From IMG/VR virus record IMGVR_UViG_3300017991_000084, positions 26,830 through 90,829 of that record: a DNA stretch of 64,000 nt; one strand, 5' to 3'. The translations under genes and the position numbers were made by a program. Every line of letters starts with the position of its first letter. Within the stretch, counting starts at the first letter, position 1. Source of the DNA: a virus. Its lineage: Duplodnaviria > Heunggongvirae > Uroviricota > Caudoviricetes. Under the pieces are notes generated by a model. It was not told where the DNA came from. It worked only from the letters and a program-made list of their open reading frames with translations, and searched no databases. This document shows positions 32,346-61,012 of this stretch, piece after piece.

Positions 32346-32932
32346 TTCACTCCGATGCGACCCTGAGTCGGCAACAACTGTCCGTGCTTCAATGCTGCTG
32401 CCAGATCCAAAGGCTTGTAAGCTGTATCCTCCAGCGCGAACAGCAAGTGCTTCGGAGTCAACACACGCAACAGTGGTGCTTCCCAATAGTGTGGAGAATT
32501 GTTGTGGAAGTGCCCATGCACATTGAAGTCCACATCACCGAATGAACTCTGCCCAATCTTGATCGGCTTGTGTGACAACAGCACACGGTAGTACCTGTTC
32601 ATCGGCTTCTTGATTCCCTTACGGTAGACTACGTTCACCACCGCACGATCCATGACCGCAATGAATCCATTGTCCAGATACCATGCAACCGGGAACTTAT
32701 CGTGATTCCCACGAATCAGGATCTTCGTCCCAGGCAGTCCCCGAATCAAACCAGAGAACTCACCCTTCTTGTAGAATCCAACATCACCCAGGTGATACAC
32801 CACATCCTCAGGCCCCACCATATTACTCCAGTTCCTCACGATCAGAGCAGTGAAATCCTCAGGACGACCACACAGCTCGGTCATCTTCGTGTGAAACAAG
32901 TGTGTATCTGAAATCACCCACGTCTTCATCAT
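32339..32932 (-). CDS. calcineurin-like metallophosphoesterase
   Basis: ISDTHLFH, HLGDVG and GNHD motifs. Confidence 0.55.
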   Translation of the reverse strand: MMKTWVISDTHLFHTKMTELCGRPEDFTALIVRNWSNMVGPEDVVYHLGDVGFYKKGEFSGLIRGLPGTKILIRGNHDKFPVAWYLDNGFIAVMDRAVVNVVYRKGIKKPMNRYYRVLLSHKPIKIGQSSFGDVDFNVHGHFHNNSPHYWEAPLLRVLTPKHLLFALEDTAYKPLDLAAALKHGQLLPTQGRIGVKQ

Positions 32933-34002: not shown

Positions 34003-34759
34003 CCGTTGCCCCTACGAATGGACGCGCCAACACATTCACCGGGAATGCCTTGGTCACACGGTTGAATATCTTGATCTGATTTGGAGGCAGATCTGACATG
34101 AGTAGAATACCAGAGCGCAGCTTCATCTCTGTCACCAGCATCTTCCCCAACCAGTACGCATCAATCACATCTGTGCCAGGACCATCCACATCATCACTCT
34201 TGCCCTTGACCTTCTTTGCCTTGAACAACGTGTCCGGAAGCTCAAACCCATTCTCCGCTGCTGCCTCACGCATCTCCATCTTTGTGGCACGACCGTGACA
34301 CGCAAACATCTTCACCGACATGGGATCGTGGATTCTCATCTTCCCACTACTCGCATAGATCTGGTCCTTTAGTAGACCAGTCAGCTCGGCAATCTGCAAC
34401 AACCGATTCGTACTACTCATTCCCTGATGAATTGCATACCCCTCCACACTGAAGTATGCATCTCGAAGACCATCCGGCACCGCTCGTAAGATGTGCTCTG
34501 CAAACAAGTTACGGTAATTGAACGCACGCCTCACATCATATGCATGTGACGTCTCATCCTTTCCCTTCTTCATTCCTGTGAGCACACCATGATCCGGCTC
34601 AGCCGTCACGTACTTCTTCACGTCATGGAAGAATCTCCATGAACACACCTCTCCCTTGGAATCAAAAAAACAGAACCCTCCATGGTTCAGAGAAACGTCA
34701 CATCCGATGACTACCATTTGCGTTCCTTTCTGGGATCGCTCGCGTACAAATCCTGCCAC
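33995..34759 (-). CDS. RuvC-like Holliday junction resolvase
   Basis: VVIGCDVSLNHGGF N-terminal Asp motif and C-terminal DVIDAYWLG. Confidence 0.5.
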   Translation of the reverse strand: MAGFVRERSQKGTQMVVIGCDVSLNHGGFCFFDSKGEVCSWRFFHDVKKYVTAEPDHGVLTGMKKGKDETSHAYDVRRAFNYRNLFAEHILRAVPDGLRDAYFSVEGYAIHQGMSSTNRLLQIAELTGLLKDQIYASSGKMRIHDPMSVKMFACHGRATKMEMREAAAENGFELPDTLFKAKKVKGKSDDVDGPGTDVIDAYWLGKMLVTEMKLRSGILLMSDLPPNQIKIFNRVTKAFPVNVLARPFVGATDD

Positions 34760-35820
34760 TCTTCCCAGGCTTGCTTACGCAACTCATCTTCCCAACCATT
34801 CTCCTCAATGACCTTGACCCACTTCTTGATCGTATACTCCTCACCCTTGAACTGCACCTTCGTAGTGAGTAGCATCAGCTCTTTATCCGTACACCCTTGG
34901 CACTTAGCCAACAGAACCAGATTCGAAGAGATGTCATCCAGACCATAGTCATACTGAATACGGAACAGCCCACCACGGAACGCAGGGCCGAACCTAGTCT
35001 TGACCACCGTAGAGTCTACCCACGTGCCAATGTTCACCTTCTTCGCATTCTGAATCTTGGCCTTGCCCTTCAGGTAAATACGCACGGACGACCAGAACTC
35101 CAGACCCAATCCACCCACTGTGGTCTCAGACGCAAAGGGAGACTTCACATTCGCACGTGTCTGATCGATCACCAGGATGGTGATGTTTGCATCCAACGCA
35201 CGACGTCCCCATGATCTCAACCCAAGGTGAATCTGCTTGGCGCGATATGCTCCGTACCCCTGCTCATCCATCTTCTTGTCCTGCTCAATCTCCGCAGGCA
35301 ACACAGTGATACTGTCCACCACCACCAGCCGTTTCGGGATCTCTACCGTCTTTCCCTCTTTCTTTGCTTTCGCCTTTACCTTATCCACCTCAGCCACCAA
35401 GCCACCGATGTTCTTGTCGAACAGCTCTTCAATCGTCTCCGAATGCCACAGGTGGAACTTCGGATGCCGCATGTCCATCCCACACATGGTAGTGAATTCC
35501 GGATTAATCGACCGCTCTGTGTCATCGTAGTATGTCTCGTAACCTGAGCGCTGAGCATAGCCCATGGTAGTGTAAGCAAACAAGCTCTTAGCTGTGCTGC
35601 TGCCACCATAGATCTGTGTGATGCGTCCAGCTGGCAGACCTCCAGGAAACCGATTGGCAACCGCCAAGTCCAGCTGAGTACAGCCGGTCTGAATCCAATC
35701 CTCTACTGGAGGCAGATCCAACAAGTCACACTCCTGTGACAGCTCTTCAACCTCATCACAAATGTCTGCGTCTTTCTTCTTTCTCGGCATACTAGTCCTC
35801 GTACACTGTGTCCTCGTCAT
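34711..35820 (-). CDS. RecA/UvsX-like recombinase
   Basis: GGLPAGRITQIYGGSSTAKS RecA-core-like P-loop region; LVVVDSI Walker B-like. Confidence 0.5.
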   Translation of the reverse strand: MTRTQCTRTSMPRKKKDADICDEVEELSQECDLLDLPPVEDWIQTGCTQLDLAVANRFPGGLPAGRITQIYGGSSTAKSLFAYTTMGYAQRSGYETYYDDTERSINPEFTTMCGMDMRHPKFHLWHSETIEELFDKNIGGLVAEVDKVKAKAKKEGKTVEIPKRLVVVDSITVLPAEIEQDKKMDEQGYGAYRAKQIHLGLRSWGRRALDANITILVIDQTRANVKSPFASETTVGGLGLEFWSSVRIYLKGKAKIQNAKKVNIGTWVDSTVVKTRFGPAFRGGLFRIQYDYGLDDISSNLVLLAKCQGCTDKELMLLTTKVQFKGEEYTIKKWVKVIEENGWEDELRKQAWEEWQDLYASDPRKERKW

Positions 35821-36364
35821 CCCGATCTCTCTGACGACGATTACGATTCCGCAGCTCCACGATTGCCTCCATGTTACTCTCGCTCTTGCGTCCCTTCATC
35901 GAACCCACATCACCTGAATTGTAGTACCGATGTACGACCAACTCGACCAAGTTCTTGAGCATAGCTCTACGCTGCTCGGCTGCTGTCTGAAGGATAGACA
36001 ATGCGTCTGCTGCCTTGTTCGCCTCAATGTGATCACGGATTGCTGCCTGCGTGTCAGGATGTGCCTGAACCGCTGCCTCAACTGCCTTGTCCGTGACCTT
36101 ATCCAACCCATATGTCTTGGGATTGGTACGCATGTCACCCTTCAACTTCGCCTTCACGTACTCAACATGCTCTTTCGCCTTCTTCGCGTCAGACCGTGCC
36201 TCAGATGCCAGCTCCCCAATTTGACAGAACAGGAGTGGTTGTTGAACACACTCCTGTTCCAGACCATCAGGATCAATGGAGAGTTGACCACGAAACTCAC
36301 TCAGGTGCGATTTCAACTCTTGCTCAGTCATCCTCATCTCCACTAGGCTCATCCAAAATCTCAT
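35792..36364 (-). CDS. coiled-coil hypothetical protein
   Basis: 190-aa minus ORF. Confidence 0.4.
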   Translation of the reverse strand: MRFWMSLVEMRMTEQELKSHLSEFRGQLSIDPDGLEQECVQQPLLFCQIGELASEARSDAKKAKEHVEYVKAKLKGDMRTNPKTYGLDKVTDKAVEAAVQAHPDTQAAIRDHIEANKAADALSILQTAAEQRRAMLKNLVELVVHRYYNSGDVGSMKGRKSESNMEAIVELRNRNRRQRDRDDEDTVYED

Positions 36365-37307
36365 TCACTCTGGATGCGGTTTCATCGGACGGAGCCTCTG
36401 CATCACTGCTACGTCTGCGCCGTGAACCAGAGTCCTCTTCCGCATCCTGAGACCGACGACGACGGCGACCAGTGCCCTCATCCTGAACTGTTTCCTCAGG
36501 CTGATCCCCCTCATCAGAACGACCACGACGACGACGCTCACCACCCTCTGACGAATCACTGCGAGAACGACGACGACGCTCGCCACCCTCATCCGAACCA
36601 CGACGACGTGAAGATGTGCCATTAACCGCCTGGGCCATCTCCTCATACGGGGTCTTCTTCAGCAGCTCCTCGAAATCCTCAGGCGCATCATCCAGCCAGT
36701 CATCCGGAATCGGCTCATTCTCATAGAACCGGAACCCTTTGTACTTCGTTCCCAATCCGGAACCGGAACGGGTGAACTCAATGTCACGTCCCTTGTCCGG
36801 ATCGCTTGGATCAATGATCCCATGACGACGATCCTGAGACAGCTCCGCGATATTGTCATTGACCACCACTGGAGCATCATACCAACGCAGGCCCTTGGCT
36901 TCCGTATCCTTGGTCTTGATGTCCACCACCAAGAACAGATACCGCAGCTTGGGAGCCAAATCTTTCAGCGCCTCATCATCCGCATTCTGCTCCTTCATCT
37001 GCTCGTACAACTCACAGACAGGGCACGGCTCACCAAACATCTTCCGCAAACAGATGAACGTACTCTCATCTGCCCCAATCTTCGTGTGAATGTACACCTT
37101 CTTACCGAAGTAAGGAAGATCTTTGTATGTCTCAAACTTCGGAGAGATGATACGAATCGCATTCGGCCCATTCTCCGTCTTGTACTGCGAAATGCCCAAA
37201 CGATCCAGCTTCGTTGTGTCCACGTAGAAGAACTTGCTCCCTCCACGGTTGTTAGCCTCACGCTGCTCGTTCTCGATTGCCGCTGTACGATCTCTACCTC
37301 TACCCAT
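36324..37307 (-). CDS. gp32-like single-stranded DNA-binding protein with an Arg/Ser/Asp/Glu-rich repetitive C-terminal tail
   Basis: Zn motif H...C...CPVC in HTKIGADESTFICLRKMFGEPCPVCE; acidic tail carrying SDEGGERRRR repeats. Confidence 0.55.
   Translation of the reverse strand: MGRGRDRTAAIENEQREANNRGGSKFFYVDTTKLDRLGISQYKTENGPNAIRIISPKFETYKDLPYFGKKVYIHTKIGADESTFICLRKMFGEPCPVCELYEQMKEQNADDEALKDLAPKLRYLFLVVDIKTKDTEAKGLRWYDAPVVVNDNIAELSQDRRHGIIDPSDPDKGRDIEFTRSGSGLGTKYKGFRFYENEPIPDDWLDDAPEDFEELLKKTPYEEMAQAVNGTSSRRRGSDEGGERRRRSRSDSSEGGERRRRGRSDEGDQPEETVQDEGTGRRRRRSQDAEEDSGSRRRRSSDAEAPSDETASRVNEILDEPSGDEDD
36430..36615. repeat. three imperfect roughly 45-nt tandem repeats (cgacgacgacgctc.ccaccctc...) encoding the RRRR/SD repeats of the SSB tail
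   Basis: Direct repeats visible at 36441-36475, 36520-36566 and 36567-36614. Confidence 0.6.
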
Positions 37308-37427: not shown

Positions 37428-38363
37428 CTACTCTCCAAAACACGCCTTCACAATCAATGCTGCCAAGGCACTCTTGCCTCCATAGTACACATTCACGGAG
37501 AAGATTCGAATCACCTTAGCGATATCCTCTGCATCTTCTACGTTCTCACACTTGCGAAGGTTCGTCAAAAAGAATGTCAATAGCGCTTTTCTCAGTCGCT
37601 CTGGATCATCTTCGATGATGTAGTACAGGGTCAGGATCTTCTTCCAGTCCCGCCTACGCTTCTCCGGAACCCGCAACAACATCTTCCCCAACTCGATGAT
37701 GTTCGAATCCTTCTCCGTCCCCTTGACGATCAACCGAATCGCTGTATCCAGATCCTTCTCATCATGAACTTTTTCTAGAGAAACGAGAGCCTCACGAGGA
37801 CACCCCTTGGCAATCATAGCCACGGCCTCAAGGACTTGCTCCTTCACGTCCCACTCCATCGCCTTACATGCCCGCCTCAGGATCTCCATCACCTGAGCAT
37901 AGGACAGCTTCTGTACGACGTAATCCGTACACCGGCTCCGTATCCCCTTGATGATCTCCTTCGGTGCTGTGGTGCAGAAAATGAAGTACGCATCCTCTGG
38001 TGGATTGTCTGTGATATCCAACAGAGCCTCCTGGGCCGCTGGAGTAAGCTGATGACTCTCATCTAGAATGATCGTCTTCGGAGCCCCATCTATCGACGTC
38101 ATGCGGCAGTGTCGAATGATCTCCCGCACTGTGTCAATCCCACGAGTGTTCGCAGCATTATATAGAAAAGTGCTCTGCTCCGTTGACCCAAACATTGTAG
38201 CCAGCACACGAGCAATGGTGGTCTTGCCACAACCATACGGCCCATGCAACAGGTACACGTGAGGACGCACGGTGCCCTTGAGCGCTCTACTCAGGGCACC
38301 GATGGTCTCCTCATTTCCTACTACTTCTTCCAGGGAGGTTGGTCTCACTAGTTGATACAACAT
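37428..38363 (-). CDS. clamp loader ATPase (gp44 / RFC small-subunit-like)
   Basis: LLHGPYGCGKTT Walker A; DESHQLT Walker B; SRC motif in IRSRC. Confidence 0.65.
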   Translation of the reverse strand: MLYQLVRPTSLEEVVGNEETIGALSRALKGTVRPHVYLLHGPYGCGKTTIARVLATMFGSTEQSTFLYNAANTRGIDTVREIIRHCRMTSIDGAPKTIILDESHQLTPAAQEALLDITDNPPEDAYFIFCTTAPKEIIKGIRSRCTDYVVQKLSYAQVMEILRRACKAMEWDVKEQVLEAVAMIAKGCPREALVSLEKVHDEKDLDTAIRLIVKGTEKDSNIIELGKMLLRVPEKRRRDWKKILTLYYIIEDDPERLRKALLTFFLTNLRKCENVEDAEDIAKVIRIFSVNVYYGGKSALAALIVKACFGE

Positions 38364-39454: not shown

Positions 39455-42151
39455 TTACACGATTTCCACTTTTTCTATAGAACCGCATTCCATGCAATCA
39501 TAGAGATGGAACTTCGTGCCACCCTCTTTGACCTTCTCATGCGACTGACCTGTCTTATGACAACACGCCGCACACTCCCGGATAGCCAGCTCGTGCATGT
39601 CATACCAGTTTCGTCCCACTTCCCACTCAAAGATCATTGGCACATCACGCTGCCACTCAAACCATGGACGCACCATGATCTCATCCACCATCGGAACAAT
39701 CTTAATGATCTCAGTAGGAACCGCATCGAATGTGACACTGTCATGCACCTCAATGATCGGCAAGGATCTGATACCTTCCTTGACGAATCTCTTCTCCACC
39801 AAATCCTCTTCGATGTGAATGATTCCATTCAACACCAAATGGAACGCAGGACCCTGGATCGGATAGTTCACCAGCTGATTGTAACTCAAGGGACCATGGC
39901 TCCGGAACCCAGATGCACCCTCCAGGTATCCCTTCGAAACATAGTTCTTCCGGTTACGAATCTGCCACTCACGCACCCCAGCAAACTCATCCCAGAACTG
40001 AGCCTGCACCTTGAATACATGCTCCTTACTCACGCCCAATGGGGCCATGTTCTTGGCGATAGAGTCAGCTGTTGACCCAAAGAACGACGCAAAGACAAAC
40101 AGGTTCTTCGCCCAGAATCGCTCCGTAGGTCTGTCGATCTCAGACTCATCCTTCTCGAATAGCCTAGCCGCCCACTTCAGGTGCATGTCCACACCTTCCT
40201 TAAGCTGACGGATCAGCTCCGGGTCATTAGAAGCCATGGCGATAATGCGAACCTCCAACGATCCCTGGTCACCCTCCAAGAACACCCTTCCTTCAGACGG
40301 GACAATACACTTCCGGAACTTCTTCAGCTCCTCATCATGCTTGAACACATTCTGAACATTCGTATCCGATGCAGAAGATCGATACGTTGCAGCCCGATTC
40401 AAGTTGTAGTTTGGGTGCACATAGTGATCAGAACTCATCACCTTCCGATATTGCTCCACCCTCTCCAGCGCCGAACACGTATGTCGGAAACCAAGCACAC
40501 CATTCACAAACCGCCTGACTGATGCGTTCTTTGTCTTAGCTTCGATGGCTCTCAGATTCTTCTCATCTGTACTGCGTGACTTGAATGGAGGCTCAATCCC
40601 ATACTGATCATAGACCACCTTGGCCACCTGTGCAGGAGAATCCGGATTGAATGTCTCACCCTTCTCCAGCTCCACCGCCTTCACTTTCGCATCCGCATAC
40701 AGTGCCTTCAAGTGTACATCCTGCTCCACCTTGTACTTCCTCTCAAACGCACCCAGCTCCTTCATATCAATTCGCACACCACGAGACTTATAGCTGGCCA
40801 ATGCACGAGCCCCAGGCATCATCAACTTATAGAAGAAGTCCCACAGATCCTGATGTCGCTCAAAGAATCTCTTCTGCTTCTTGTATGCCAGCATTGTGTA
40901 CCGCGAGTCCAATGTACTGTATGTCACCTGATCACTCAACGGCGCATCCAAGAAGTTGACCACATCCAAAATCTCCTTGTAGTCATCGCCTCTCATCTGA
41001 AACGCCTGGAACCCCAAGCTGGTGGACTTGCTGTTGCAGTACATCACATGGGCACCAATCATCGTGTCATGCACCGCATTCACTGCCTTAGTCCCAAAGA
41101 ACTTCCTAGTCCAAGAGTCTTCCATGTTCAAATTCTGCACTACCTTAGGCACATCACTCTTGAGCAGCTGCGTCAGGGACTGACAGATGTAAGACAGCTC
41201 CACCTGATTGAAATACGGATTCCCCTCCTTATCCGGCATGTCCAACGGAATCATTACCCCATAGTCAGGAGCTGTAGCAAACGACACACAGTAAATGGTA
41301 GACCCATCCAAATGCGCGTGAAGAGAATTTGTTTCAAAGTCATACCCGAACGGATTCCCCTGATTGATCAGCTCCTCAATGTACGCAATGGCCTCATCCG
41401 GATCAGTGATAATCTCACACCCTTCTCGATCCAACGGACGTGGGAGCTTCTTCCCTAGCTTCGCCACACACCGTGCCAAATCATACAGGAAGAGATTACG
41501 ATCATCCGGATTGAACTTGTCATTCATTCGTGCCAGATGAAACTTCGGACTGTAAGTGCCGCCCACCCAACACCCATACTCATGGTAAGGCAACACCTGC
41601 CCATGCATCAACTGTGAATTGAACTTGACCTTCTTCAGGTACTTTGGCTGAATGACAGCCTTCAGTGACAACGTATCCAGGCAGATGATAAGCTCTGGTC
41701 TCACCTCTTTGATATCAGCCAACAACCTAGACCGACAAGCCTTCACCTGTGTATCTGTTGGGTCCTTCTCCTGCCACTTGTTCTTCATACCAGGGAAACA
41801 ATCCACCACTGTAGTGCGGACACAATCCCGATCCATATCGATATTCAGCTGCTTCAAGGACGATCTCAGCAGATCCCCATCACTACCCATGAATGTCAAT
41901 CCATCCCGATCATCCACACGACTTGGGGCTCCACTCACAATGAGGATACCCTTCTCACCACGCCCGTAGCGCTCCACCTTCGGAGATCCACAGGACTGGT
42001 ACAGCTTGCATGTAGAGCAGTCATAGACCTTCGCTGCCTTAGGTGTAGACTTACGCGCCCCACGCTTCGCTCTTCTCAGCGCCTTCCCTGTGTCCTTCTT
42101 CAAATCCGGATTGATATCATCTGGAAAAAAGAATGCCTTCTGCTTAGCCAC
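39455..42151 (-). CDS. DNA polymerase I family (PolA) with an N-terminal family-4 uracil-DNA-glycosylase-like domain and a 3'-5' exonuclease
   Basis: UDG-like GEKGILIVSGAPS...LTFMGSDGDLL; exonuclease I motif YDFETN; polymerase motif C IIEVHDSVTFDA; motif B-like RFWAKNLFVFASFFG. Confidence 0.7.
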   Translation of the reverse strand: MAKQKAFFFPDDINPDLKKDTGKALRRAKRGARKSTPKAAKVYDCSTCKLYQSCGSPKVERYGRGEKGILIVSGAPSRVDDRDGLTFMGSDGDLLRSSLKQLNIDMDRDCVRTTVVDCFPGMKNKWQEKDPTDTQVKACRSRLLADIKEVRPELIICLDTLSLKAVIQPKYLKKVKFNSQLMHGQVLPYHEYGCWVGGTYSPKFHLARMNDKFNPDDRNLFLYDLARCVAKLGKKLPRPLDREGCEIITDPDEAIAYIEELINQGNPFGYDFETNSLHAHLDGSTIYCVSFATAPDYGVMIPLDMPDKEGNPYFNQVELSYICQSLTQLLKSDVPKVVQNLNMEDSWTRKFFGTKAVNAVHDTMIGAHVMYCNSKSTSLGFQAFQMRGDDYKEILDVVNFLDAPLSDQVTYSTLDSRYTMLAYKKQKRFFERHQDLWDFFYKLMMPGARALASYKSRGVRIDMKELGAFERKYKVEQDVHLKALYADAKVKAVELEKGETFNPDSPAQVAKVVYDQYGIEPPFKSRSTDEKNLRAIEAKTKNASVRRFVNGVLGFRHTCSALERVEQYRKVMSSDHYVHPNYNLNRAATYRSSASDTNVQNVFKHDEELKKFRKCIVPSEGRVFLEGDQGSLEVRIIAMASNDPELIRQLKEGVDMHLKWAARLFEKDESEIDRPTERFWAKNLFVFASFFGSTADSIAKNMAPLGVSKEHVFKVQAQFWDEFAGVREWQIRNRKNYVSKGYLEGASGFRSHGPLSYNQLVNYPIQGPAFHLVLNGIIHIEEDLVEKRFVKEGIRSLPIIEVHDSVTFDAVPTEIIKIVPMVDEIMVRPWFEWQRDVPMIFEWEVGRNWYDMHELAIRECAACCHKTGQSHEKVKEGGTKFHLYDCMECGSIEKVEIV

Positions 42152-42152: not shown

Positions 42153-43160
42153 CTATTCCTCCCTTGTGCGAATCAAGTACTCCGATTGACCGTAAGTGAA
42201 CATCACCACCCCATCCTCTGAGTAGAAGTCAAACGAAGTACACTCCTTCTCCACTCCATCGAACAGCACCGGATTCGCAAAGAACCCAATCTCCCTGTCC
42301 CCAATATCTGCATCCATCTCCAGCGTTTCCTGAAGCACGCCCAGCTCACTCTCCGACACGATAGTACACTGTGTCCCTGTGAGCATCACCTCAAACTCCT
42401 GTGCCCCAATGTCCACCTTCTTCTGATACTTCCCATGCTTCGCCAACACATCCAAAATCCTGTCACCGTTGAATGAAATTGTCACCGGCTCTGAATCTGG
42501 AAACAACCTACGCAAATCTGGATAGTCATCTGACAGTAGAGATGATGTGATCACCGTCCCATCCGCAGCCTCAAAGTTGATGCGGGTCCCTGCATAGATC
42601 TTCCCACCATTCAGGTCCATCCCACCAATCGCCTTGATGAAAGGTAATGGTACAGACCCATCCAATGTCACCTTCTCCTCCAGCTTATGACGAAAGATAC
42701 GGAATTTGTCACAGGCATATAGGAACTCACCCATCGCCCGGACTCCACACAACGCACGATCCGCTTCATCCTTCGACACGCAAACTGAACTCGCCTTCAA
42801 TCCAGCCACAAACTTCTCCAGGTCCCCAACGTCCACCAACGGATCAGTGATCGGCACCTTGTTCAATGGCATCGCATCCTTGAAAGTCTTGAAGTCCATC
42901 TTCAAACCATCAGATGTGATGTGCAACTTGCCACGCCGCAACACGATCTCCACTTCATCAGCACGCATTGTCTTCAACATATCCAACAGAGGCTTACCGG
43001 AAACCACACATGATAGATCCAGTTCTCCTGGAAGTGGGGTCTCCACTTGAAAACTCAGATGCCCACTACGCACTGTCCGACCATCGAAATACAATGTGTC
43101 ACCAATGATCACACGCTTCAGACAGGCAATCAATTCGTTACGACTTACCTTCATCTTCAT
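42153..43160 (-). CDS. DNA polymerase sliding clamp (beta / DnaN-like)
   Basis: 335 aa; three-domain length and position immediately upstream of the polymerase. Confidence 0.4.
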   Translation of the reverse strand: MKMKVSRNELIACLKRVIIGDTLYFDGRTVRSGHLSFQVETPLPGELDLSCVVSGKPLLDMLKTMRADEVEIVLRRGKLHITSDGLKMDFKTFKDAMPLNKVPITDPLVDVGDLEKFVAGLKASSVCVSKDEADRALCGVRAMGEFLYACDKFRIFRHKLEEKVTLDGSVPLPFIKAIGGMDLNGGKIYAGTRINFEAADGTVITSSLLSDDYPDLRRLFPDSEPVTISFNGDRILDVLAKHGKYQKKVDIGAQEFEVMLTGTQCTIVSESELGVLQETLEMDADIGDREIGFFANPVLFDGVEKECTSFDFYSEDGVVMFTYGQSEYLIRTREE

Positions 43161-43899
43161 CCTCTTTCAAAATGTTAGCGACGTAAGTCTTTGATATCTC
43201 TATACTTATGCTGTTCCGACCCAATCGCTTGCACACCCGATGAACTGTTCCACTACCGGCAAACATATCCACAACCATGTCACCTGGATTCGTACTCATC
43301 AACACCATCCGCTCAATCAGAGCTTCCGGATGCTGATTGGAGATCCACTTACGACGTTCATGGAATGTCCCACACACTCTCGGAAACTCCCACACATCAT
43401 CCGGCACCTTCCCAAGAGGATTCGCCCGCTTGTCCTTGTACTTCAATAGACGCGCTGATGGAACCCGAATGCAATCCGTATTCCACTCCACATCTTTCTT
43501 ACTGAATCGCATCAGTGGACGATACCCATTCCCACAATCTGTCTTCCGATGCTGCCCAAACGTGAACCGCCAAAGTAGGAGGCGGTAATCACAGAGATGG
43601 CTATAGTCTGCTATATAGTCCTGAGCTGAGAACTCAAGCGCAGCTCTATGTGTGTGATATATGCTCCACCAAACAACGTCAGCCCAATTGCTCCGCAAAG
43701 ACATCACCAAGCGTTGCCACAACCACGTTCGATACTCATGCACACTCTTCCATTGCTTGTCATCGAAATCCGCATACTTCATCCCCAAGAAGTCCGGAGG
43801 ATCAGCAAACACCATACGCACATGTGGATGCTCTTTCCGAAGATCACTCGCCACCTCTCGACAGTCACCGCAGATTACCTCATTCATATGATCATCCAC
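43138..43899 (-). CDS. DNA amino-methyltransferase (N6A/N4C, beta class, PF01555-like) with an atypical motif IV DPPDF
   Basis: Motif IV VFADPPDF near the N-terminus; motif I VVDMFAGSGTVHRVCKRLGRNSISIEI near the C-terminus. Confidence 0.6.
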   Translation of the reverse strand: MDDHMNEVICGDCREVASDLRKEHPHVRMVFADPPDFLGMKYADFDDKQWKSVHEYRTWLWQRLVMSLRSNWADVVWWSIYHTHRAALEFSAQDYIADYSHLCDYRLLLWRFTFGQHRKTDCGNGYRPLMRFSKKDVEWNTDCIRVPSARLLKYKDKRANPLGKVPDDVWEFPRVCGTFHERRKWISNQHPEALIERMVLMSTNPGDMVVDMFAGSGTVHRVCKRLGRNSISIEISKTYVANILKEDEDEGKS

Positions 43900-44852
43900 T
43901 CCTCTCCGATTGCCTCACGGATTAGTGTCCACATCTTTCCATGTCCCAAACTGTCCGGATCTTCACCATCTGGAAGCTGGAGCACATACACCTCAGGAAT
44001 GAACGGCCTGAAGTAGTCCGCTGCCTCTCTCGCCTTCCAGTATGCATCTCCATCCCATCCGAACACCAACTGCTGCACCTTACTATCTATGATCCTCGTC
44101 TGCTGCTTCTCTGTGATGGAGGCCCCAAACGTACACACCGCATGCTCATTCACGCGCCACTGATCCATCAGCCCCTCAGTCAACACCATGAGACCGTCTT
44201 CACGTATGTCATCTAGTCCATACAGATAGTCCATGTCATTGTCAGAGTTTTTGTACTTGACCATCGCACGCCCTGTCATATCCGCAGCCTGAAATGCCAC
44301 CAACTCCCTATCCTCATAGACAGGGATGATGAGTCGATTCATATACGGCCCAGTCCGACAGACACCACACTTGCGATCTGTCAAATCCTCAATGTACAGA
44401 TCCCTACGCTCCAGATAATCATCGATCAAAGGAAAGTCCATGTCCGCAGTCACCTCTATGAACTGCCGTGGCAATCCCAAGAACTCATTCTTCTCTTCCT
44501 TGGTAGTGGACAACTCCTCACGTCGCAACATCCGCTGAACCTGTGACACTGGATCATCTTCCAGGAACACACCCATGTCCTGGATCATACGCTCACAGTA
44601 CTCCAGCTTAGAATGCGTCAGAATAGCCACCAAGAAAGCGAATGAGCCCTTCTTGTTGCATCTCCAACAGTTGAACTTCATCGTCTCTTTGAAGATGCCA
44701 CAGTGGTTGCTAGGATCAGGACCTAGAGGCCCACCCATAGCACAGAATGGGCAGTTGACGTTGATCGTATCCGAACTAACGTTCTTACCCTCTGTCCAAT
44801 ACTCAATGCCATGCTCAGACAGCACATCGATTATCACCTGCTCATAGTTCAT
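43884..44852 (-). CDS. DNA primase (zinc-binding domain plus TOPRIM, DnaG-like)
   Basis: CPFC...CWRC zinc site; TOPRIM EGLMD and DGD. Confidence 0.6.
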   Translation of the reverse strand: MNYEQVIIDVLSEHGIEYWTEGKNVSSDTINVNCPFCAMGGPLGPDPSNHCGIFKETMKFNCWRCNKKGSFAFLVAILTHSKLEYCERMIQDMGVFLEDDPVSQVQRMLRREELSTTKEEKNEFLGLPRQFIEVTADMDFPLIDDYLERRDLYIEDLTDRKCGVCRTGPYMNRLIIPVYEDRELVAFQAADMTGRAMVKYKNSDNDMDYLYGLDDIREDGLMVLTEGLMDQWRVNEHAVCTFGASITEKQQTRIIDSKVQQLVFGWDGDAYWKAREAADYFRPFIPEVYVLQLPDGEDPDSLGHGKMWTLIREAIGEEWMII

Positions 44853-45104
44853 GTCACCTCACGATTGGAGGAGGGATGAGCCTCTCATACCGTGTGTTAT
44901 GAGAGGCCCTCATTACCATGTCATGAATCTTGTCCTTGCCCCACCCAAGATCCAGGAGCTGCCGTTTCAGCTTCTCCATTCTTTCCTCAATCCCACCCTC
45001 TATCAAATCGTGAAGATTCAATAGATCACGCATGTACTGCACTATCGCTCGTTCATCCAACAGATCCACCTGCGCAGGATCAGGAAAAGTCATAACACAT
45101 CCTC

Positions 45105-46343
45105 CTATTGATCATCCTCTACGTCACCGATGCCCTTCTCACGCTGCTTGTCCTCCTTGAGTAGGAACTCGTCACTCTTGAGCTTCAGACATGACCAGCG
45201 CCCATATTCATCCTCGAACCAGACCACAATCCCCTCTCGGATCGTGTCCGCATCCAACACGGACTTGCCCTCGGTCAGCTGCTTCAAGTCATTCAATGAC
45301 CACGGCTCAGAATCGAATAGATCCACAATCCAATCATTGATGAAATGACCCTCACCCAACAACGGAGGACACTCCAAGCCCAACTCCACGGCACGATGGT
45401 ATACCATCTCACGTGGCAGATCCACGCAGAAGCCGTCTGGTGTGGTGATGGTGACACGATACAAGATCACTCGATACTCACTCGCCTTGCATCCATATGA
45501 GAACCCAGACTGAATCTCAGCCCCAGTCTTTGAATGCCCGAAGATCTCATAGTACACCTGCTCACCCTTCCGCAGATGTGGAGCCAACTTCTCCTCGATC
45601 TCCTTACGCACACCAGGAATGTGAGCACCAATGTGGTCCACACGACGTGTCCCACTAACCACACGCCACTCCTCTGTCACCTTGGGAGCCCAGAACTTCC
45701 ACCACGGACGCTGTGTCTTGAACAGCATGTTACCCGTCCGAGCTGAAGTCCCATGGATCTTCTCCTCAATGTACAGAGTCCCATTTGGAATCCGATGTGA
45801 CTCACGGAGCAGGTGCTTCGTGTCCCAGTGCTTCCAGAACATCTCTGACACCGGCTCCCGAACTCTCTTCTTCCGAGACCCAGGCGCACCAGGAGTACGA
45901 TGAGGCACCACGTACTTCTCACAGATCTTCACACCATTCACATGGGTAAACTCGTCACCTACCTCCAGGTACTCCGCAACCCCAGTGTTGTTGATAGACT
46001 CCACCAGTGTGTGAATAGAGGCAACTGAAGCCACATACCCATTCGACATCTCACCACGGAATCTCTGCGCCCGAACGCGACCATTCTTACCGAAGTAGCC
46101 CTTCACGCTCGTATCCGCATTCAATTCCGGATTCGAATACAAGTTGTTATGGCTCAGGTACTCCGGAGACAACCGTAGATTGCTGTCGAAGTACACCATC
46201 AAGTCACCGTCTTTCGCATCCAGACCGACAACCACCTGATCACCCACCACAGTAGCCAGCTTCAACCGATCTGCATTCGGATGCGGACGGACATTCTCTA
46301 GCCGCACGACCAACGCATTGTTAGATTCCGCTTTCTTCAACAT
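45105..46343 (-). CDS. RNA ligase, Rnl2-type nucleotidyltransferase, with an N-terminal tRNA-binding (Trbp111/EMAPII/Myf-like, PF01588) OB domain
   Basis: N-terminus VVRLENVRPHPNADRLKLATVVGDQ...RAQRFRGEMSNGYV (tRNA_bind signatures); motif I EEKIHGTSAR (T4 Rnl2 has EKIHGTN); motif III-like YYEIFG; motif IV EGIVVWFED; motif V LKLKSDEF. Confidence 0.6.
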   Translation of the reverse strand: MLKKAESNNALVVRLENVRPHPNADRLKLATVVGDQVVVGLDAKDGDLMVYFDSNLRLSPEYLSHNNLYSNPELNADTSVKGYFGKNGRVRAQRFRGEMSNGYVASVASIHTLVESINNTGVAEYLEVGDEFTHVNGVKICEKYVVPHRTPGAPGSRKKRVREPVSEMFWKHWDTKHLLRESHRIPNGTLYIEEKIHGTSARTGNMLFKTQRPWWKFWAPKVTEEWRVVSGTRRVDHIGAHIPGVRKEIEEKLAPHLRKGEQVYYEIFGHSKTGAEIQSGFSYGCKASEYRVILYRVTITTPDGFCVDLPREMVYHRAVELGLECPPLLGEGHFINDWIVDLFDSEPWSLNDLKQLTEGKSVLDADTIREGIVVWFEDEYGRWSCLKLKSDEFLLKEDKQREKGIGDVEDDQ

Positions 46344-46748
46344 CGCTTCTCTCCTACTTGTTCAGCTTCTCCTGAATGGCAGTGAGACGAGCATCATTGA
46401 ACTCGCAAATCTCCACAAGACCCTCAACTGCCTCCGTCAACTTCATCCACTCCAGAGACGACTTCTCTCGATTGCTCGCCTTCTCCAGCTTCGCCCTGAT
46501 CCCCTTCAGCTTCTGTATCACTTCTGTCGCCATCTTCTTCATCCTCCACTGCCAAACCTTCGATTAGTGCTTCCATATACGCAATGCGCTCCTCACGATC
46601 CGGGAACGCCTTGTTGATCCCGACCACCAGATTCTGGTAGATCTTCATCTCCTCGGCCATCTCTTCCTGAGCCACCTTCTTGGGGAACGTCGCTGCCCGA
46701 TCAAACGCTCGTCTCTTCTTGAACTTCGGTCCACGCTTCTTCTGCTTC

Positions 46749-48215
46749 TTAGCCATTGGTTCCTCCATAGTCACTCATGTATTCGTTGAACTCTTTCTGC
46801 AAGTCAGCACGAGGCCCCTGATTCGCCTTGGTCCGCTCGTCAAAGGTATCACGCATGACCAGCTCAATCACCGTTGTCTCCTTCTCCTGCCCATCTCGAT
46901 GCATCCGACCGATACACTGCTTCCTGGCTGTCGGAGATACCACTATGTCATAGAACACCACGATCTCGGCTGAATAGCCCTCCCAGGACTCCCCACCGCA
47001 CTTCGTATTGCACACGCACACCTGAACCTCCGGGTCCTCCAAAAACGCCTTCTCGGCCATCCTACGCTTCTCTGCGCCCTGCCCGCCCTTGATCGTCACA
47101 TAATTGATCTTGGCCTTATCCAGAGCCTTATGGATGACCTCATCAGCCCCGTCATACTGATAAAATACGATGATCTTTACCGGATGGTCCTCTATTATCT
47201 CCATCAATGTGTCCAATTTCGGGTTTTTCTTCAAATACTTGATGCGTCTCTCCTTACGACCGTCAGGACCGTCAACGTCGTAATAGAAATACCCACCCAG
47301 GACCTGCTTGTACTTGTGCGACTTCTGAGACGGCTCGCTGATATCCACCTTGACCCCATTGACTGTGACATAGGGTTTCTGGATGATCTTTGCTTCCCAC
47401 TTCCGGAACTCGTCACTCGCCTCCACCTGCCATACCACCTCATTGCAATCCGGCAAGTCCGCACACTCCGACCGCTCGAACAACAATGTCACTGGTGACG
47501 CCATGTCAAAGATCTTCATCTCTGCGCCTTCCTTTGGGTCCCACGTGTAGAATCCTTTCTTGAAGAAATTCAACCGATAGCGGAAGAAGTTATCTCCCAA
47601 ACACTGCCCCTGATCAATCGCCTTGTACACATTGAACAGCTCCAGGAGACTCTTATCAAACGGAGTCCCAGACAGCCCAATGACATGCTTCGCTCTTCTA
47701 CTCAGCTCACAGCAAATCTTCGATTGCAACGAATCGTATGACTTGCATCTATGCGCCTCATCAAAGATGATCCCATCGAACCCATCCACGAACTGATTCG
47801 TGTCCATGTACCACTTGCAACCACGTTTGGCCTTCACCTTACGACCATACACGTACTTCAGGCCCTCATAGTTGATGACGTACACATTACGATCCAGAGC
47901 CAGCTTATCAAGGCGCTCTTCCCTCGATCCAGATAGAACGACTCCATTATATGCTGTCCATTTCATGTTGGATTGCCATGCCCCGAATGATGACGTCGGA
48001 CCCACAACCAAGATCCTGGGACACTTCCAGATGTGCTCCATCACATAGTAGGCAGTCGCAGTCTTCCCGCTCCCGATAGGATGCCAGAACGCAACTCTAT
48101 CCTTCCCAACTGCGAACACCATGGACACCTTCTGATGCCATCGCGGAGGCCGCAAGAACTGGCAACAGGACAATGCCCAATCTAGCTTCTCTTCTGGTAT
48201 ACTCTTGTAGTTCAA
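46749..48215 (-). CDS. SF2 helicase (SNF2/DEAH-like)
   Basis: Walker A GSGKTAT; DEAH-box FDEAHRCK; LSGTPF. Confidence 0.6.
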   Translation of the reverse strand: MNYKSIPEEKLDWALSCCQFLRPPRWHQKVSMVFAVGKDRVAFWHPIGSGKTATAYYVMEHIWKCPRILVVGPTSSFGAWQSNMKWTAYNGVVLSGSREERLDKLALDRNVYVINYEGLKYVYGRKVKAKRGCKWYMDTNQFVDGFDGIIFDEAHRCKSYDSLQSKICCELSRRAKHVIGLSGTPFDKSLLELFNVYKAIDQGQCLGDNFFRYRLNFFKKGFYTWDPKEGAEMKIFDMASPVTLLFERSECADLPDCNEVVWQVEASDEFRKWEAKIIQKPYVTVNGVKVDISEPSQKSHKYKQVLGGYFYYDVDGPDGRKERRIKYLKKNPKLDTLMEIIEDHPVKIIVFYQYDGADEVIHKALDKAKINYVTIKGGQGAEKRRMAEKAFLEDPEVQVCVCNTKCGGESWEGYSAEIVVFYDIVVSPTARKQCIGRMHRDGQEKETTVIELVMRDTFDERTKANQGPRADLQKEFNEYMSDYGGTNG

Positions 48216-48429: not shown

Positions 48430-49797
48430 CTAGTTCTTCGACTTCATCGGCCAAGTCTTGTACGCAAACTGCCCAATGTCCAGATTCTGGGCGAACAAAC
48501 ATCCTACGAACTGAGGACCGTGTCTGTTCGCCATAACATGGGCGCACATACGATTTCCATTGTCTCCCACCTGAGAGATGCCAAGCGCCAAGTCCACATT
48601 GCCGATCTTCCGAATGTCCTCAGCACTGTCTCCCTGCTTCAACTTCGACCTCTTCAATGCATCACGTGTCACCTGGGACGCAATGATCATCAGGAATTTC
48701 TTCTCGTCCGCGAGACCCTTACATTCCAGGTACATATCATTGATCACATCGTTTCTCTTGTCCGATGACGGCAACTTCATTTTTTCTGGATAATCGTTGA
48801 TCACCACATCTGGGATGAAATCCTCATACATCTCCAGGTACTCCAGATACCGACGCAGCTCTCCCATTGTGCAAGTACCCATCGGATATTTTTTGATGAC
48901 CAGCCGCCCACCGAATCGGGCCGCACGCTTACGCACACTCCTCACCGCCTCCAGGTCATGCGTCGTCTTTGGGTAGATCTTCCGGGTCTGCATCACATTC
49001 CCATCGTCATCGATCTCCTCGAAGTCCACGCCATCGACAGAGGCATGCTGATCATTCGATAAGCTACCGAACCCACGGTCATACCGCTCTTCTGTGTCCT
49101 CCAACGACAGCTCGTGTGAAATGTGCAACACGTTCAGCCCACGCATCAACGCCCTGATCCCGAAGTAGATCAGTGAGAACGACTTCTTGCCCTTGAACCC
49201 ACCGAACACACAAACCAGATCCGTTCTACTCATCGGACGCTTCAGGATATTATCCAGTGTGTCCAGCCCCAACGGCAGGATCGGTTCATTCGCCTTGTCT
49301 GGACGCATGTACGCAGGCAGATCAGCCTTGAAGTACTCACTGCCCACCTCTTCCTTCTCTACGCCCACACGCAACGCTGACTGCATGTTCTCACGTGCCA
49401 TGTCCAGCTTGCCCATCTGCGCCAGCTTCATACTCTTGACCACCGCCAGCTCGAACTCACGTGCCTGGACAAACTGATTGATCCGCGACACCACATACGC
49501 GACATTCGGCTCCTCCATGTCATTCATCCGCTCGACGTAGGTCAGGAAGTGGTGCTTCTTATCCTCATCCTTCGTCTCCAGGAACGACACCAGCTCATCA
49601 TGGAAGTGCTGCCCAGGAGCCTCTTTGAATTGCATGAAGTACGAATAGCACAGCTGAATAAGCTCCTTCGTAATTGACGATGAGAAGTATTCCGGCTTGA
49701 TAGCCGAATGTGCCATTTTGATGAAATCAGTGCTGGTGATACACAGGTACAAAAATGAGTCTTGAATCCTCTGACTCAGAACATCATCCTTCTTCAT
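48430..49797 (-). CDS. replicative DNA helicase (DnaB / gp41 family)
   Basis: Walker A GGFKGKKS; DnaB motif IIASQVTR; N-terminal DnaB-like domain. Confidence 0.6.
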   Translation of the reverse strand: MKKDDVLSQRIQDSFLYLCITSTDFIKMAHSAIKPEYFSSSITKELIQLCYSYFMQFKEAPGQHFHDELVSFLETKDEDKKHHFLTYVERMNDMEEPNVAYVVSRINQFVQAREFELAVVKSMKLAQMGKLDMARENMQSALRVGVEKEEVGSEYFKADLPAYMRPDKANEPILPLGLDTLDNILKRPMSRTDLVCVFGGFKGKKSFSLIYFGIRALMRGLNVLHISHELSLEDTEERYDRGFGSLSNDQHASVDGVDFEEIDDDGNVMQTRKIYPKTTHDLEAVRSVRKRAARFGGRLVIKKYPMGTCTMGELRRYLEYLEMYEDFIPDVVINDYPEKMKLPSSDKRNDVINDMYLECKGLADEKKFLMIIASQVTRDALKRSKLKQGDSAEDIRKIGNVDLALGISQVGDNGNRMCAHVMANRHGPQFVGCLFAQNLDIGQFAYKTWPMKSKN

Positions 49798-54728: not shown

Positions 54729-55931
54729 TCACCCCTTGAGTACTGCGACGGGCTCTAACTCCACAATCGCCTTCACAAGGTCCTTCTGGTTCTCCATGAC
54801 CACGTCAATAGGCTTGTACGCTCCAGGAGCCTCATCCAGGTCTCCCCGGTTCCGAACTCCATGCACAATGCCCTTCAGCTTGGTGATCTCCTCACCCAAG
54901 TCCAGCTTCTCCTTCGCTGCTGATCGAGACATCAACCGCCCAGCCCCATGGGAGCACGAACAGAAGCTCTCCGGATTCCCCAAACCTTCCACGATGTATG
55001 ACTTCGTCCCCATAGATCCAGGGATGATCCCGATCTCGCCCTTGTAAGCACGAGTCGCACCCTTACGGTGAACCAGGACGTTCTTCCCAAAATGGTGCTC
55101 CATAGCCGCATAGTTGTGGGCTATATTGATCGGTGCATCAAACTCGATGCCCTCGAAGTTCCCACGGAACGTGTCCATGATCGCATACATCATGTACATT
55201 CTGTTCTTCAGAGCAAAATCCACACACCACTTCATTTCACTCAGGTAGTTCTGGCCCTCATCAGAGTCCAGAGGCAAGAATGCCAGCTGCACGTTCGGAG
55301 GCACAGATGCCTTCCACTTCTCATTCAACTGCTTCGCCAGATCGTTGTAGTACTTCGCCACCTTGTAGCCAACGTTCCGAGATCCTGAGTGAAGCATGAT
55401 CCAGATGTGACCATCGTCACCCTTCTGGATCTCGATGAAGTGGTTACCGCCACCCAACGTCCCCAGCTGGAACCGCGCTGCCTCATGCTGCTCAGCCACA
55501 ATAGACTTCGCCGTTCCGCTAGTCAACTTACCCCAAAGCGGAGGCATGTCCAGCATATCTACCTGGAAGCTGTGATGGTTCCGGCCCATCGGGATACGCT
55601 GTCGGATCTCAGCCAGGATAGGTCTCCACAGGTTCTGAGAAAACGATGCACCAAGATTCCAGTCTTTCGCCAAGAGAGAAGTCTTGACCGCACACATGCC
55701 ACAGCCAATGTCCACACCAACGGCATTCGGGATAACCACACCCAAAGTCGCCATGACACCACCAATGGGCATACCGTACCCACAGTGACAATCAGGCATA
55801 GCTGCAATCCACTTGTACGCGAATGGTAGCTGCGCCAGGTTGTACAACTGCAACATAGCCTGAGGCTCAATGTCCTCGGACCACATCTTGATTGGCAACA
55901 TGTTCTTGTGTGCTTCAACTCTCATGGTCAT
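54729..55931 (-). CDS. rtcB: RtcB RNA 3'-phosphate / 2',3'-cyclic phosphate ligase
   Basis: MPDCHCGYG, GGGNHF, AHNY, HGAGR motifs. Confidence 0.8.
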   Translation of the reverse strand: MTMRVEAHKNMLPIKMWSEDIEPQAMLQLYNLAQLPFAYKWIAAMPDCHCGYGMPIGGVMATLGVVIPNAVGVDIGCGMCAVKTSLLAKDWNLGASFSQNLWRPILAEIRQRIPMGRNHHSFQVDMLDMPPLWGKLTSGTAKSIVAEQHEAARFQLGTLGGGNHFIEIQKGDDGHIWIMLHSGSRNVGYKVAKYYNDLAKQLNEKWKASVPPNVQLAFLPLDSDEGQNYLSEMKWCVDFALKNRMYMMYAIMDTFRGNFEGIEFDAPINIAHNYAAMEHHFGKNVLVHRKGATRAYKGEIGIIPGSMGTKSYIVEGLGNPESFCSCSHGAGRLMSRSAAKEKLDLGEEITKLKGIVHGVRNRGDLDEAPGAYKPIDVVMENQKDLVKAIVELEPVAVLKG

Positions 55932-55993: not shown

Positions 55994-57016
55994 TTAGTTA
56001 GCCGCAGGAGGAGTCACGAGCACACTCGGAGCCTCACCAGCTCCACCCATGTACCACTGCGGATACTTGCCGTCCCACACGTCCAGCCGCTTCAGCTCGA
56101 CTTCCAGCTTCTTCAGCTCCAGGAAGAACGGATTCTCATTCGCCTCTTTCGCAGCATCATTGACCAGACGCAGCGCCTGGGCTTCACCCTCAGCAATCTT
56201 GATCGCCTTCTTGGCCTCACCCGCACCCTCTTGCTCCAGTCGCAGGTTCTTGTCGGCCTGAGCATCAAGCAACGCCTTGGCGACGGTCTTTTCCTGCTGG
56301 GCAATGAAGACGTCATCGATGGCCTTCTGGATTTCCTCGTTCTCATATAGGAAGCCACCAAACATCGACACGGTACGAATCGTCACACCGACCTTCGCGT
56401 AGAACGATACGACGTCGTCCTCAACGGCCTTCTGGATGGTGTTCTTCTTGTCACGCAAGGTATCCAGTTCGTCCTTGGCACATTCGATTGCCGCGACCTT
56501 CTGAATACGTTCACGGATCTCAGTGTCCATGACGCGAGCCAGCGAACCAGACGGATAGTAGTAGAGGAACGTTGCCGTATTGGACTCCTCGACCATTGCA
56601 GTACAACCGAACCCAACGCTGAAGCCTACGGAGTCAGCCGACTCGACCTGGATGGATTCGTTGTTCTGTGTGGTTCCGGTATTCTCATCTGGAGTCCACT
56701 GGCGAGTAACAGGAGTACGGTCCACGGTGATGACCTTCATCGTGGGAATCCACTCACCCTGCCATCCGAAGCGCCCAGTCTTGCGCCAACGCTGGGGAAT
56801 CGTGATCCGCTTAGTGGCGACCTTGGCCTGCTCCAGATACTCGATGGAACCAAACTGAGCCTGCCCAGTCTTGTTCGCACCTTCCAGGGGCACGACGAAC
56901 GCCGTCTCGTTGTTCTTGATTTCCTTGATCGGATCAACGCGCACCTTCTTGATACATCCGACCCCACACGTCGCCAGCATCACCAGTGCCAGCACCAACA
57001 GAATGCTTCTCTTCAT
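55994..57016 (-). CDS. SPFH (band-7 / HflKC / prohibitin-like) domain lipoprotein
   Basis: Signal MKRSILLVLALVMLATCGVGC; C-terminal QQEKTVAKALLDAQADKNL...EGEAQA coiled coil typical of SPFH. Confidence 0.5.
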   Translation of the reverse strand: MKRSILLVLALVMLATCGVGCIKKVRVDPIKEIKNNETAFVVPLEGANKTGQAQFGSIEYLEQAKVATKRITIPQRWRKTGRFGWQGEWIPTMKVITVDRTPVTRQWTPDENTGTTQNNESIQVESADSVGFSVGFGCTAMVEESNTATFLYYYPSGSLARVMDTEIRERIQKVAAIECAKDELDTLRDKKNTIQKAVEDDVVSFYAKVGVTIRTVSMFGGFLYENEEIQKAIDDVFIAQQEKTVAKALLDAQADKNLRLEQEGAGEAKKAIKIAEGEAQALRLVNDAAKEANENPFFLELKKLEVELKRLDVWDGKYPQWYMGGAGEAPSVLVTPPAAN

Positions 57017-57076
57017 GTTCTTACCCTTTCCAAATGCACACAGTTTGTCTTTGACACGACCACACAGCCGCATCAC

Positions 57077-57316: not shown

Positions 57317-58087
57317 GCTCTCTCCTCTCAATTGACGCCCAGAACCCACCTGAGCAACTCGATTGACGTCTCTACCCTACGCAAGGCAGACATGTTGGTT
57401 TTCAACTCACCATCTTTCGCACGAATCTTCTTCTTCAATGCAACGGACTTGATGTACAAGTCACGCAACGTCTTCTGGATCTCCTTCTCGGTTCTCATGG
57501 TAGTTTCTCCCTTTCACACAGTAGATGCTCTCGATCCCTCGCATGGTGAACAGCAAGTCCAACAACTCCTCAAGCATGGTGGTTGCCGTCAGCAGCAGCT
57601 GCTTGTAGAATGTAGCTGGCGTGAATCGGAATGCGTCCCGATACGGCAACACCATCTCTTGTTCCAGCTCCGGATACCGCTCCATGAAGTGCAAAACCAG
57701 CACCTCGGCCTCATCCGAATACAGAGTCTGAAGCTGGTATTTCAGGAGCACCCTATTGACCACCTTCACCATGTTGTGATCTTTAATTCTCACGTCTCTG
57801 TCTCCACACACCGCAAACACAGACATAGTTGCGAGCACGTAACTCGGCACGCATATTCCGCAGACCAGCCGGATTGTTTGTCACCAGTATGAACGCCGAT
57901 GGATAGATGAATCGGTCAAACATCCACCGCAACAGGTCCATCCCACTCTCACCTGGACCCAAATCATGATCCATGTAGACAAGGTCGAAGTGGTGAGGAC
58001 CATTCAGGATACATTTCGCCATCTCAGCAGTTCGTGCTATGGCATCCACACCCTTCAAGTCACGAAGATCATCGATCAGTAACTTTC

Positions 58088-59590: not shown

Positions 59591-59663
59591 CGGGACCGGA
59601 AGGATTCGAACCTTCAACTTACGGCTTAGAAGGCCGGTACTCTATCCGTTGAGTTACGATCCC
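59591..59663 (-). tRNA. tRNA-Arg(TCT)
   Basis: Acceptor GGGATCG/CGGTCCC; anticodon loop CTTCTAA; T arm GAAGG-TTCGAAT-CCTTC. Confidence 0.65.
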
Positions 59664-59809
59664 TATTTCAATAGTCCATATCCATCAGGCACCCAAAATG
59701 GACTTGGACCTCTTTGGTCTTGCATGGCTTACCACCAGGAGTCTCACACCCGACCTTGATAGTCTCGTTGGGCTCCTTCCCACCACACAACCAACAGACC
59801 TCTTTCTTC

Positions 59810-60940: not shown

Positions 60941-61012
60941 CGAGCCTGCCAGAATTCGAATCTGGGCTTGGAGGATCAAAGCCTCCGGTGCTGACCACTA
61001 CACTACAGGCCC
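60941..61012 (-). tRNA. tRNA-Gln(TTG)
   Basis: Anticodon stem GGAGG/CCTCC; loop CTTTGAT; T loop TTCGAAT. Confidence 0.6.

Follow-up and report, generated by a model that had tools for sequence, protein, structure and literature searches.

The Rnl5 family of RNA ligases, as Unciuleac et al. define it, joins an OB fold at the N-terminus to a nucleotidyltransferase (NTase) domain at the C-terminus and counts bacteriophages among its hosts (PMC7261155). Its founding member, DraRnl (DR_B0094, TIGR02306), was described by Raymond and Shuman (2007) as a C-terminal adenylyltransferase that is fused to a distinctive N-terminal module and has no C-terminal domain; the module was likened to the OB fold of PheRS, and a homolog was reported in Aeromonas phage 44RR2.8t (PMC1807946). 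Phages of Aeromonas, Caulobacter, Mycobacterium and Sinorhizobium have been listed as encoding DraRnl homologs (PMC4408790). Here we describe a gene that very probably encodes a divergent, phage-type member of this family of ATP-dependent ligases (PF21189/PHA02142 N-domain type, PHROG 968). It lies on a 64,000 nt stretch of DNA (hereafter the window), which corresponds to positions 26,830 to 90,829 of IMG/VR record IMGVR_UViG_3300017991_000084, a virus of the Caudoviricetes. A first-pass annotation knew of no earlier description of this domain order; however, the OB-NTase arrangement has already been described, solved and named Rnl5, in DraRnl and in the Naegleria gruberi enzyme NgrRnl (PDB 5COT and the 6VT series), the structural prototype of the family.

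The open reading frame (ORF) is complete and is preceded by a GGAG-containing stretch upstream of its ATG. Sequence searches returned 2168 homologs at E <= 0.001, the best 120 of which cover at least 91% of the query, and an exhaustive search of cluster representatives returned 2309, most of those listed being about 400-460 aa long. A protein identical to the ligase is also present on metagenomic contigs of up to 139 kb. The ORF is thus a real and widely conserved gene. Its layout is as follows, with residues numbered as in the 412 aa protein.

45105..46343, minus strand: complete ORF of the probable Rnl5-type ATP-dependent RNA ligase, 412 aa plus stop codon (45105-45107), taken from the ORF list
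45909..46343, minus strand: residues 1-145, N-terminal OB module, with the OB barrel at about 9-118 and a beta-hairpin at about 130-144
46263..46283, minus strand: residues 21-27, HPNADRL, first tRNA_bind-like motif of the OB domain
46035..46058, minus strand: residues 96-103, RGEMSNGY, the OB strand motif RG-x-x-S-x-G
45810..45908, minus strand: residues ~146-178, basic linker of low confidence (predicted local distance difference test, pLDDT, 49-68 in the full-length model)
45177..45809, minus strand: residues ~179-389, nucleotidyltransferase (adenylyltransferase) domain
45750..45761, minus strand: residues 195-198, motif I KIHG (K195 and H197 invariant, G198 nearly invariant)
45537..45548, minus strand: residues 266-269, motif III EIFG (E266 invariant, G269 nearly invariant)
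45222..45236, minus strand: residues 370-374, motif IV EGIVV (E370 and G371 invariant)
45177..45188, minus strand: residues 386-389, motif V LKLK (K387 invariant, K389 nearly invariant)
45108..45176, minus strand: residues 390-412, C-terminal helix (390-401 in the model) and conserved acidic tail, with no further domain

Every motif string quoted in the first-pass annotation occurs at these positions, its EG-V being EGIV, the start of EGIVV at residue 370. An alignment of 65 divergent members, 30-58% identical to the query, contains ten invariant residues: S100, T175, K195, H197, R233, E266, Y283, E370, G371 and K387. K195, H197, E266, E370, G371 and K387 fall within NTase motifs I, III, IV and V. 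The lysine predicted to accept AMP is K195, and the essential residues K165, H167 and G168 of DraRnl follow the same K-x-H-G pattern. In the OB strand, G97 and G102 are nearly invariant beside S100, and the linker ends in a conserved stretch with a nearly invariant H172 followed by W-D-T175.

An AlphaFold2 model of the full-length protein (mean pLDDT 85) consists of an N-terminal beta-barrel module, the low-confidence basic linker, an alpha/beta catalytic domain, and one helix with the acidic tail. When this model was compared with the PDB using Foldseek, the top 13 matches were all NgrRnl structures (E 4.6e-15 to 9.6e-13), and their alignments of 405-424 columns take in the two domains, in unchanged order. 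Next comes T4 Rnl2 at about 5e-7, the solved Rnl2 structures matching the model over no more than the NTase domain. The values are about 1e-4 for Rnl3-type archaeal ligases, and DNA ligases are weaker still.

Profile searches point to the same family. The Pfam model PF21189 (‘PHA02142 OB-fold domain’) matches residues 12-104 with 29.1 bits against a cut-off of 27 and is matched in all 40 relatives scanned, and PHROG 968 (‘RNA ligase’) spans the full length (E 4.7e-51). The Pfam pair anticipated from the motifs was PF01588 (tRNA_bind) followed by PF09414 (RNA_ligase). PF09414 reaches residues 190-375 below threshold (19.2 bits versus a cut-off of 27), whereas PF01588 is absent, with no match at E <= 1 for the ligase and none at E <= 10 in the 40 relatives. 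Searches of PDB sequences with the single protein, or with a narrow profile of 40 sequences, gave nothing meaningful, and a divergent 65-sequence profile was needed to reach NgrRnl and T4 Rnl2. This profile finds the NgrRnl OB domain (E 3.9e-8, profile positions 4-128 against chain residues 7-120), where FRGEMSNGY of the ligase aligns with LRGQLSQGLF, and also the NTase domain of T4 Rnl2 (E 6.9e-6). A marginal match to PheRS-beta (E 0.015) is confined to the RG-x-x-S-x-G strand, which is common to the ligase, NgrRnl (LRGQLSQG) and the B2 domain of PheRS-beta. NgrRnl-like N-domain fragments retrieved from the protein database, all of them short, carry PF21189 without exception, and several were named ‘RNA ligase (TIGR02306 family)’ by JGI. 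PF21189 is therefore the Pfam model of the Rnl5 N-domain in general.

The phage protein carries the signature OB domain of Rnl5 at its N-terminus, a homolog of the one in DraRnl and NgrRnl, and its C-terminal region is a covalent nucleotidyltransferase that has the lysine of motif I as well as motifs III, IV and V. No domain follows the NTase: an Rnl5 chain is expected to stop some 30 aa past motif IV, and here 38 residues remain after EGIVV and 23 after LKLK, forming one helix and the acidic tail. NgrRnl likewise combines an N-terminal OB fold and a C-terminal NTase with no C-terminal domain, and shares with the phage ligase the RG-x-x-S-x-G strand, the EG-x-V of motif IV and the lysine of motif V. 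DraRnl has the same architecture, with K-x-H-G, EG-x-V-V (EGVVV, versus EGIVV in the phage ligase) and then a short tail. The alpha-helical domain C-terminal to the NTase, which is the signature of Rnl2, has no counterpart among the 23 residues after motif V, so that the phage ligase shows the opposite arrangement; the order of an NTase followed by a C-terminal OB domain is also not that of this protein.

Several observations weigh against placing the gene in Rnl5. The NCBIfam model TIGR02306 (RNA_lig_DRB0094, the DraRnl equivalog) scores 35.6 bits against a cut-off of 151.15 and matches the N-domain only. NgrRnl is only 15-22% identical to the phage ligase, and its NTase domain goes undetected by the 65-sequence profile (0.4 bits) although that of T4 Rnl2 is detected; in this weak second stretch, EGIVV aligns with NgrRnl EGLVF, which contains E312, and K387 aligns with the motif V lysine in FKAIS. 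The phage protein is also about 70 aa longer than DraRnl or NgrRnl (412 aa versus 339 in NgrRnl), and it differs from NgrRnl in that its OB insert is longer (about residues 59-92) and in having additional NTase segments, the disordered basic linker and the conserved acidic tail. Global template modelling (TM) scores in Foldseek are low (0.33-0.44), probably due to a different orientation of the two domains in the model. We found no assayed member of the phage subfamily, and no paper that uses the term PHA02142.

Because the global TM-scores are modest, the domains were examined separately. For the OB domain alone, as for the whole protein, NgrRnl is the best structural match, with ribosomal protein S17 and other OB folds below 4.6. 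The NTase domain is 22% identical to that of T4 Rnl2 (root-mean-square deviation 2.5 A) and 15% identical to that of NgrRnl, making it roughly equidistant from the Rnl2 and Rnl5 prototypes, which fits the accepted view that flanking domains tell ligase families apart. A convergent origin, in which an Rnl2-type NTase was joined to a tRNA_bind OB domain independently of Rnl5 and not by descent from it, could draw on these values and on the T4 Rnl2 profile match, for which NgrRnl gave no significant NTase counterpart, and we consider such an origin very improbable. All architectural and fold features by which Rnl5 membership can be tested are present, and the DraRnl equivalog cut-off alone is missed, so the protein represents a divergent, phage-typical subfamily of a known family. 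The sub-cut-off match to TIGR02306, limited to the N-domain, indicates that this subfamily is not the DraRnl equivalog and differs from that of DraRnl.

By homology with NgrRnl and DraRnl, the chemistry of the phage enzyme would proceed in three steps. In the first, K195 of motif I would attack the alpha-phosphate of ATP to form ligase-AMP; the N-terminal OB domain would fold down over the active site and set the orientation of the departing pyrophosphate. The AMP would then be moved to the 5′-phosphate at a nick, and attack by the 3′-OH of an RNA-terminated strand would seal it. By analogy, the expected substrate is a 3′-OH/5′-PO4 nick in a duplex (RNA:RNA or RNA:DNA), with Mn2+ preferred. 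In published work on Rnl5, OB residues Arg4, Lys121 and Asp53 contact the ATP gamma-phosphate and metal complex, and an N-domain deletion mutant retains 4% of nick sealing and seals a pre-adenylylated nick normally (PMC7261155).

These roles bear on the resemblance to tRNA-binding proteins from which a tRNA-targeting function had been proposed. The OB fold is of the tRNA_bind structural subclass, and to this extent the proposed N-terminal domain is borne out. However, the likeness to tRNA_bind is the published similarity of the Rnl5 N-domain, which in characterized members serves catalysis and not tRNA recognition; it reflects shared domain ancestry and is not evidence of tRNA targeting. We compared the PF01588 domains of PheRS-beta (B2), CsaA, MetRS (C-terminal domain), Arc1p and EMAPII/p43. 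Unlike these, the phage OB domain is fused to a ligase, and its closest relatives use the domain for adenylylation chemistry and not for tRNA binding.

The physiological role and substrate of Rnl5 ligases have been called uncharted in the literature. Candidate roles for the phage enzyme may include general repair of RNA nicks, repair of tRNAs whose ends have been healed, and closure of nicks with a ribonucleotide terminus in replication or repair. The genes that surround it are listed below.

48430-49797, minus strand: weakly DnaB-like helicase
46749-48215, minus strand: SNF2 helicase
46424-46774, minus strand: small ORF
44854-45093, minus strand: 79 aa ORF
43884-44852, minus strand: primase homolog
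43138-43899, minus strand: N6/N4 DNA methyltransferase
42153-43160, minus strand: sliding-clamp-like protein
39455-42151, minus strand: PolA (family A DNA polymerase)
37428-38363, minus strand: clamp loader
36324-37307, minus strand: gp32-like single-stranded DNA-binding protein
34711-35820, minus strand: RecA/UvsX-like protein
54729-55931, minus strand: RtcB, 8 kb from the ligase
55994-57076, minus strand: SPFH/Band 7 protein, upstream of RtcB
~57825-58082, minus strand: cREC-like ORF, 39% identical to the cREC_REC protein of the related phage L003 (E 1.4e-12)
59810-60610, minus strand: minimal ATP-dependent DNA ligase of 266 aa (PF01068 and PF14743), just before the tRNA array

All neighbors of the ligase gene share its minus-strand orientation, with transcription running toward lower window coordinates. 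Gaps at the ligase are short (11 nt downstream, at most about 80 nt upstream), and a scan for promoters and terminators around it gave counts at or below shuffle expectation. Co-transcription with the replication genes is the simplest reading. The PolA protein carries an N-terminal uracil-DNA-glycosylase (UDG) superfamily domain before its 3′-5′ exonuclease and polymerase domains. Three different polynucleotide ligases, namely the DNA ligase, RtcB and the Rnl5-type enzyme, are encoded in the window.

This setting raises the possibility, in our view an unlikely one, that the ligase acts on intermediates of DNA replication or repair. Its targets would be nicks with a ribonucleotide 3′ end, such as primer RNA-DNA junctions or embedded ribonucleotides, which the minimal DNA ligase of the phage may handle poorly. 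The gene sits between the SNF2 helicase and primase genes, near those for the methyltransferase, clamp and PolA, and the backbone DnaB - SNF2 - ligase - primase is kept in two of the three related phages examined, with accessory genes inserted. Rnl5 enzymes accept a DNA 5′-PO4 strand and a DNA template. Moreover, Deinococcus that lacks DraRnl is more sensitive to ionizing radiation and reassembles its genome with a delay after irradiation, and the authors raised a DNA-repair role for Rnl5 and Rnl2 ligases. Yet a gene order that related phages share can reflect common descent instead of function, and genes unrelated to replication (Thg1, GCH1 and cREC) occupy the same interval in the relatives. 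No direct evidence of such a substrate exists in any phage.

The accessory genes of the relatives are varied. A Thg1-like gene (PF04446) lies three to four genes downstream of the ligase in L003 (11538-12359) and L006 (12516-13214), and one of the three relatives encodes a cREC domain protein; an association of cREC domains with RNA ligases has been described for phage and cellular genomes (PMC7824862). The third relative, L005, is arranged differently, with a 173 aa AAA_33 P-loop kinase (13731-14252) four genes downstream of the ligase and a TnpB/Cas12f-like gene near it. Genes for 7-deazaguanine or queuosine metabolism (QueC, GTP cyclohydrolase I, Q_salvage and radical SAM) are interleaved with replication genes in the relatives (L003 1-8691, L005 11311-19136, L006 3403-7869), which suggests that the DNA of these phages is modified.

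The first-pass annotation favored dedicated repair of tRNA anticodon loops, in which the OB domain is a true tRNA-binding module that brings the ligase to broken tRNAs beside RtcB and the phage tRNA set. RtcB is present and the window holds 21 tRNA genes, all on the minus strand, comprising two tRNA-Ser genes (1783-2668) and, at a great distance from them, a main array of 19 (59591-64000), with only 18 of the 21 reaching the Rfam gathering score. The last tRNA gene stops exactly where the window does, so further array members probably lie beyond it. An Rfam scan detected no RNA families other than tRNAs.

Mycobacteriophages offer a parallel. Their ligases (for example Omega gp162 and Optimus gp149; Clusters J, E and L), along with other GenBank phage genes named ‘RNA ligase’, are about 29-33% identical over 93-99% of the query, in genomes with tRNA genes. 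Pope et al. (2013) noted that Pnk and this RNA ligase co-occur with tRNA genes in Clusters J, E and L, and cite the proposal that the pair acts in RNA repair against host defence (PMC3706429). Whereas these phages co-encode Pnkp, the window has RtcB, and Pfam searches of 40 of its ORFs revealed no Pnkp, HAD phosphatase or 2H phosphoesterase to heal RNA ends. A Thg1-like or small P-loop kinase gene was likewise not found in the window by tblastn. RtcB alone can join the 2′,3′-cyclic-phosphate and 5′-OH ends left by metal-independent RNases. The missing PF01588 match, a best OB match to a domain whose demonstrated role is step 1 adenylylation, and a gene that sits within the replication module at a distance of about 8 kb from RtcB and 13 kb from the array of tRNA genes all argue against a tRNA-directed enzyme, as does the fact that characterized Rnl5 enzymes seal duplex nicks and show no tRNA specificity. 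Dedicated tRNA repair is therefore improbable. The first-pass annotation is borne out in part: an RNA ligase with an N-terminal OB fold is supported, but this domain order has precedents and no evidence shows tRNA to be its target.

Double duty for the OB domain is conceivable because HPNAD-x-L, quoted in the first-pass annotation as a tRNA_bind signature, is kept where the NgrRnl sequence is unrelated: HPNADRL is largely retained within the close family, and the aligned NgrRnl stretch reads IAGAEAI. Such a domain would serve adenylylation and also bind tRNA or another structured RNA, giving a tRNA-repair ligase for 3′-OH/5′-PO4 breaks that complements RtcB against host anticodon nucleases. 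Alternatively, the acidic tail would tether the enzyme to the replisome for work on ribonucleotide-terminated nicks. We give proposals of this kind little chance. The D/E-rich C-terminus is kept across divergent members (e.g. DKGIGDVEDDQ, or D-x-EE-like endings) and might mediate contacts with other proteins. No acidic tail is visible in NgrRnl over the C-terminal part that aligns.

For the Rnl5-type enzyme that we favor, location in the replication module, together with a separate DNA ligase and RtcB, decisively favors or disfavors none of the candidate roles. The value of the finding as a discovery is small, since the literature already contains the architecture, the resemblance to tRNA-synthetase OB folds, the occurrence in phages and the hypothesis of RNA repair. 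The gain is one of annotation, as the ORF and about 2300 cluster representatives can be called Rnl5-type RNA ligases. The phage-type subfamily is far commoner in metagenomes than classical Rnl5, and its metagenomic homologs are mostly unnamed or labelled ‘hypothetical protein’. Among GenBank phages, tblastn identified 379 records with a homolog (about 29-33% identity), and a single match covers at least 80% of the query in 154 of them; mycobacteriophages contribute the largest share, and most of the genes listed are annotated ‘RNA ligase’. To ask what each ligase does, a phage that combines an Rnl5 ligase with RtcB, a DNA ligase and a set of at least 21 tRNAs would be a reasonable system.

Elsewhere in the window, positions 1-10400 contain no long minus-strand ORFs, and the GC skew is unchanged. 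The plus strand carries the longest ORFs there, one of which overlaps a tRNA gene, and those tested lack PHROG matches. On the minus strand, small open frames (50-270 codons) cover 95% of the region, which is probably a block of small accessory genes with the two tRNA-Ser genes. Stop-codon recoding was considered for this region and rejected, as TAG read-through adds almost nothing and TGA is the commonest off-frame stop. An HNH endonuclease gene (14725-15327, minus strand) adjoins a T4-like portal protein gene (16090-17919, minus strand), and SbcCD-like genes occupy 31434-34002. Overall, the gene content suggests a large virulent phage that encodes replication machinery of its own.
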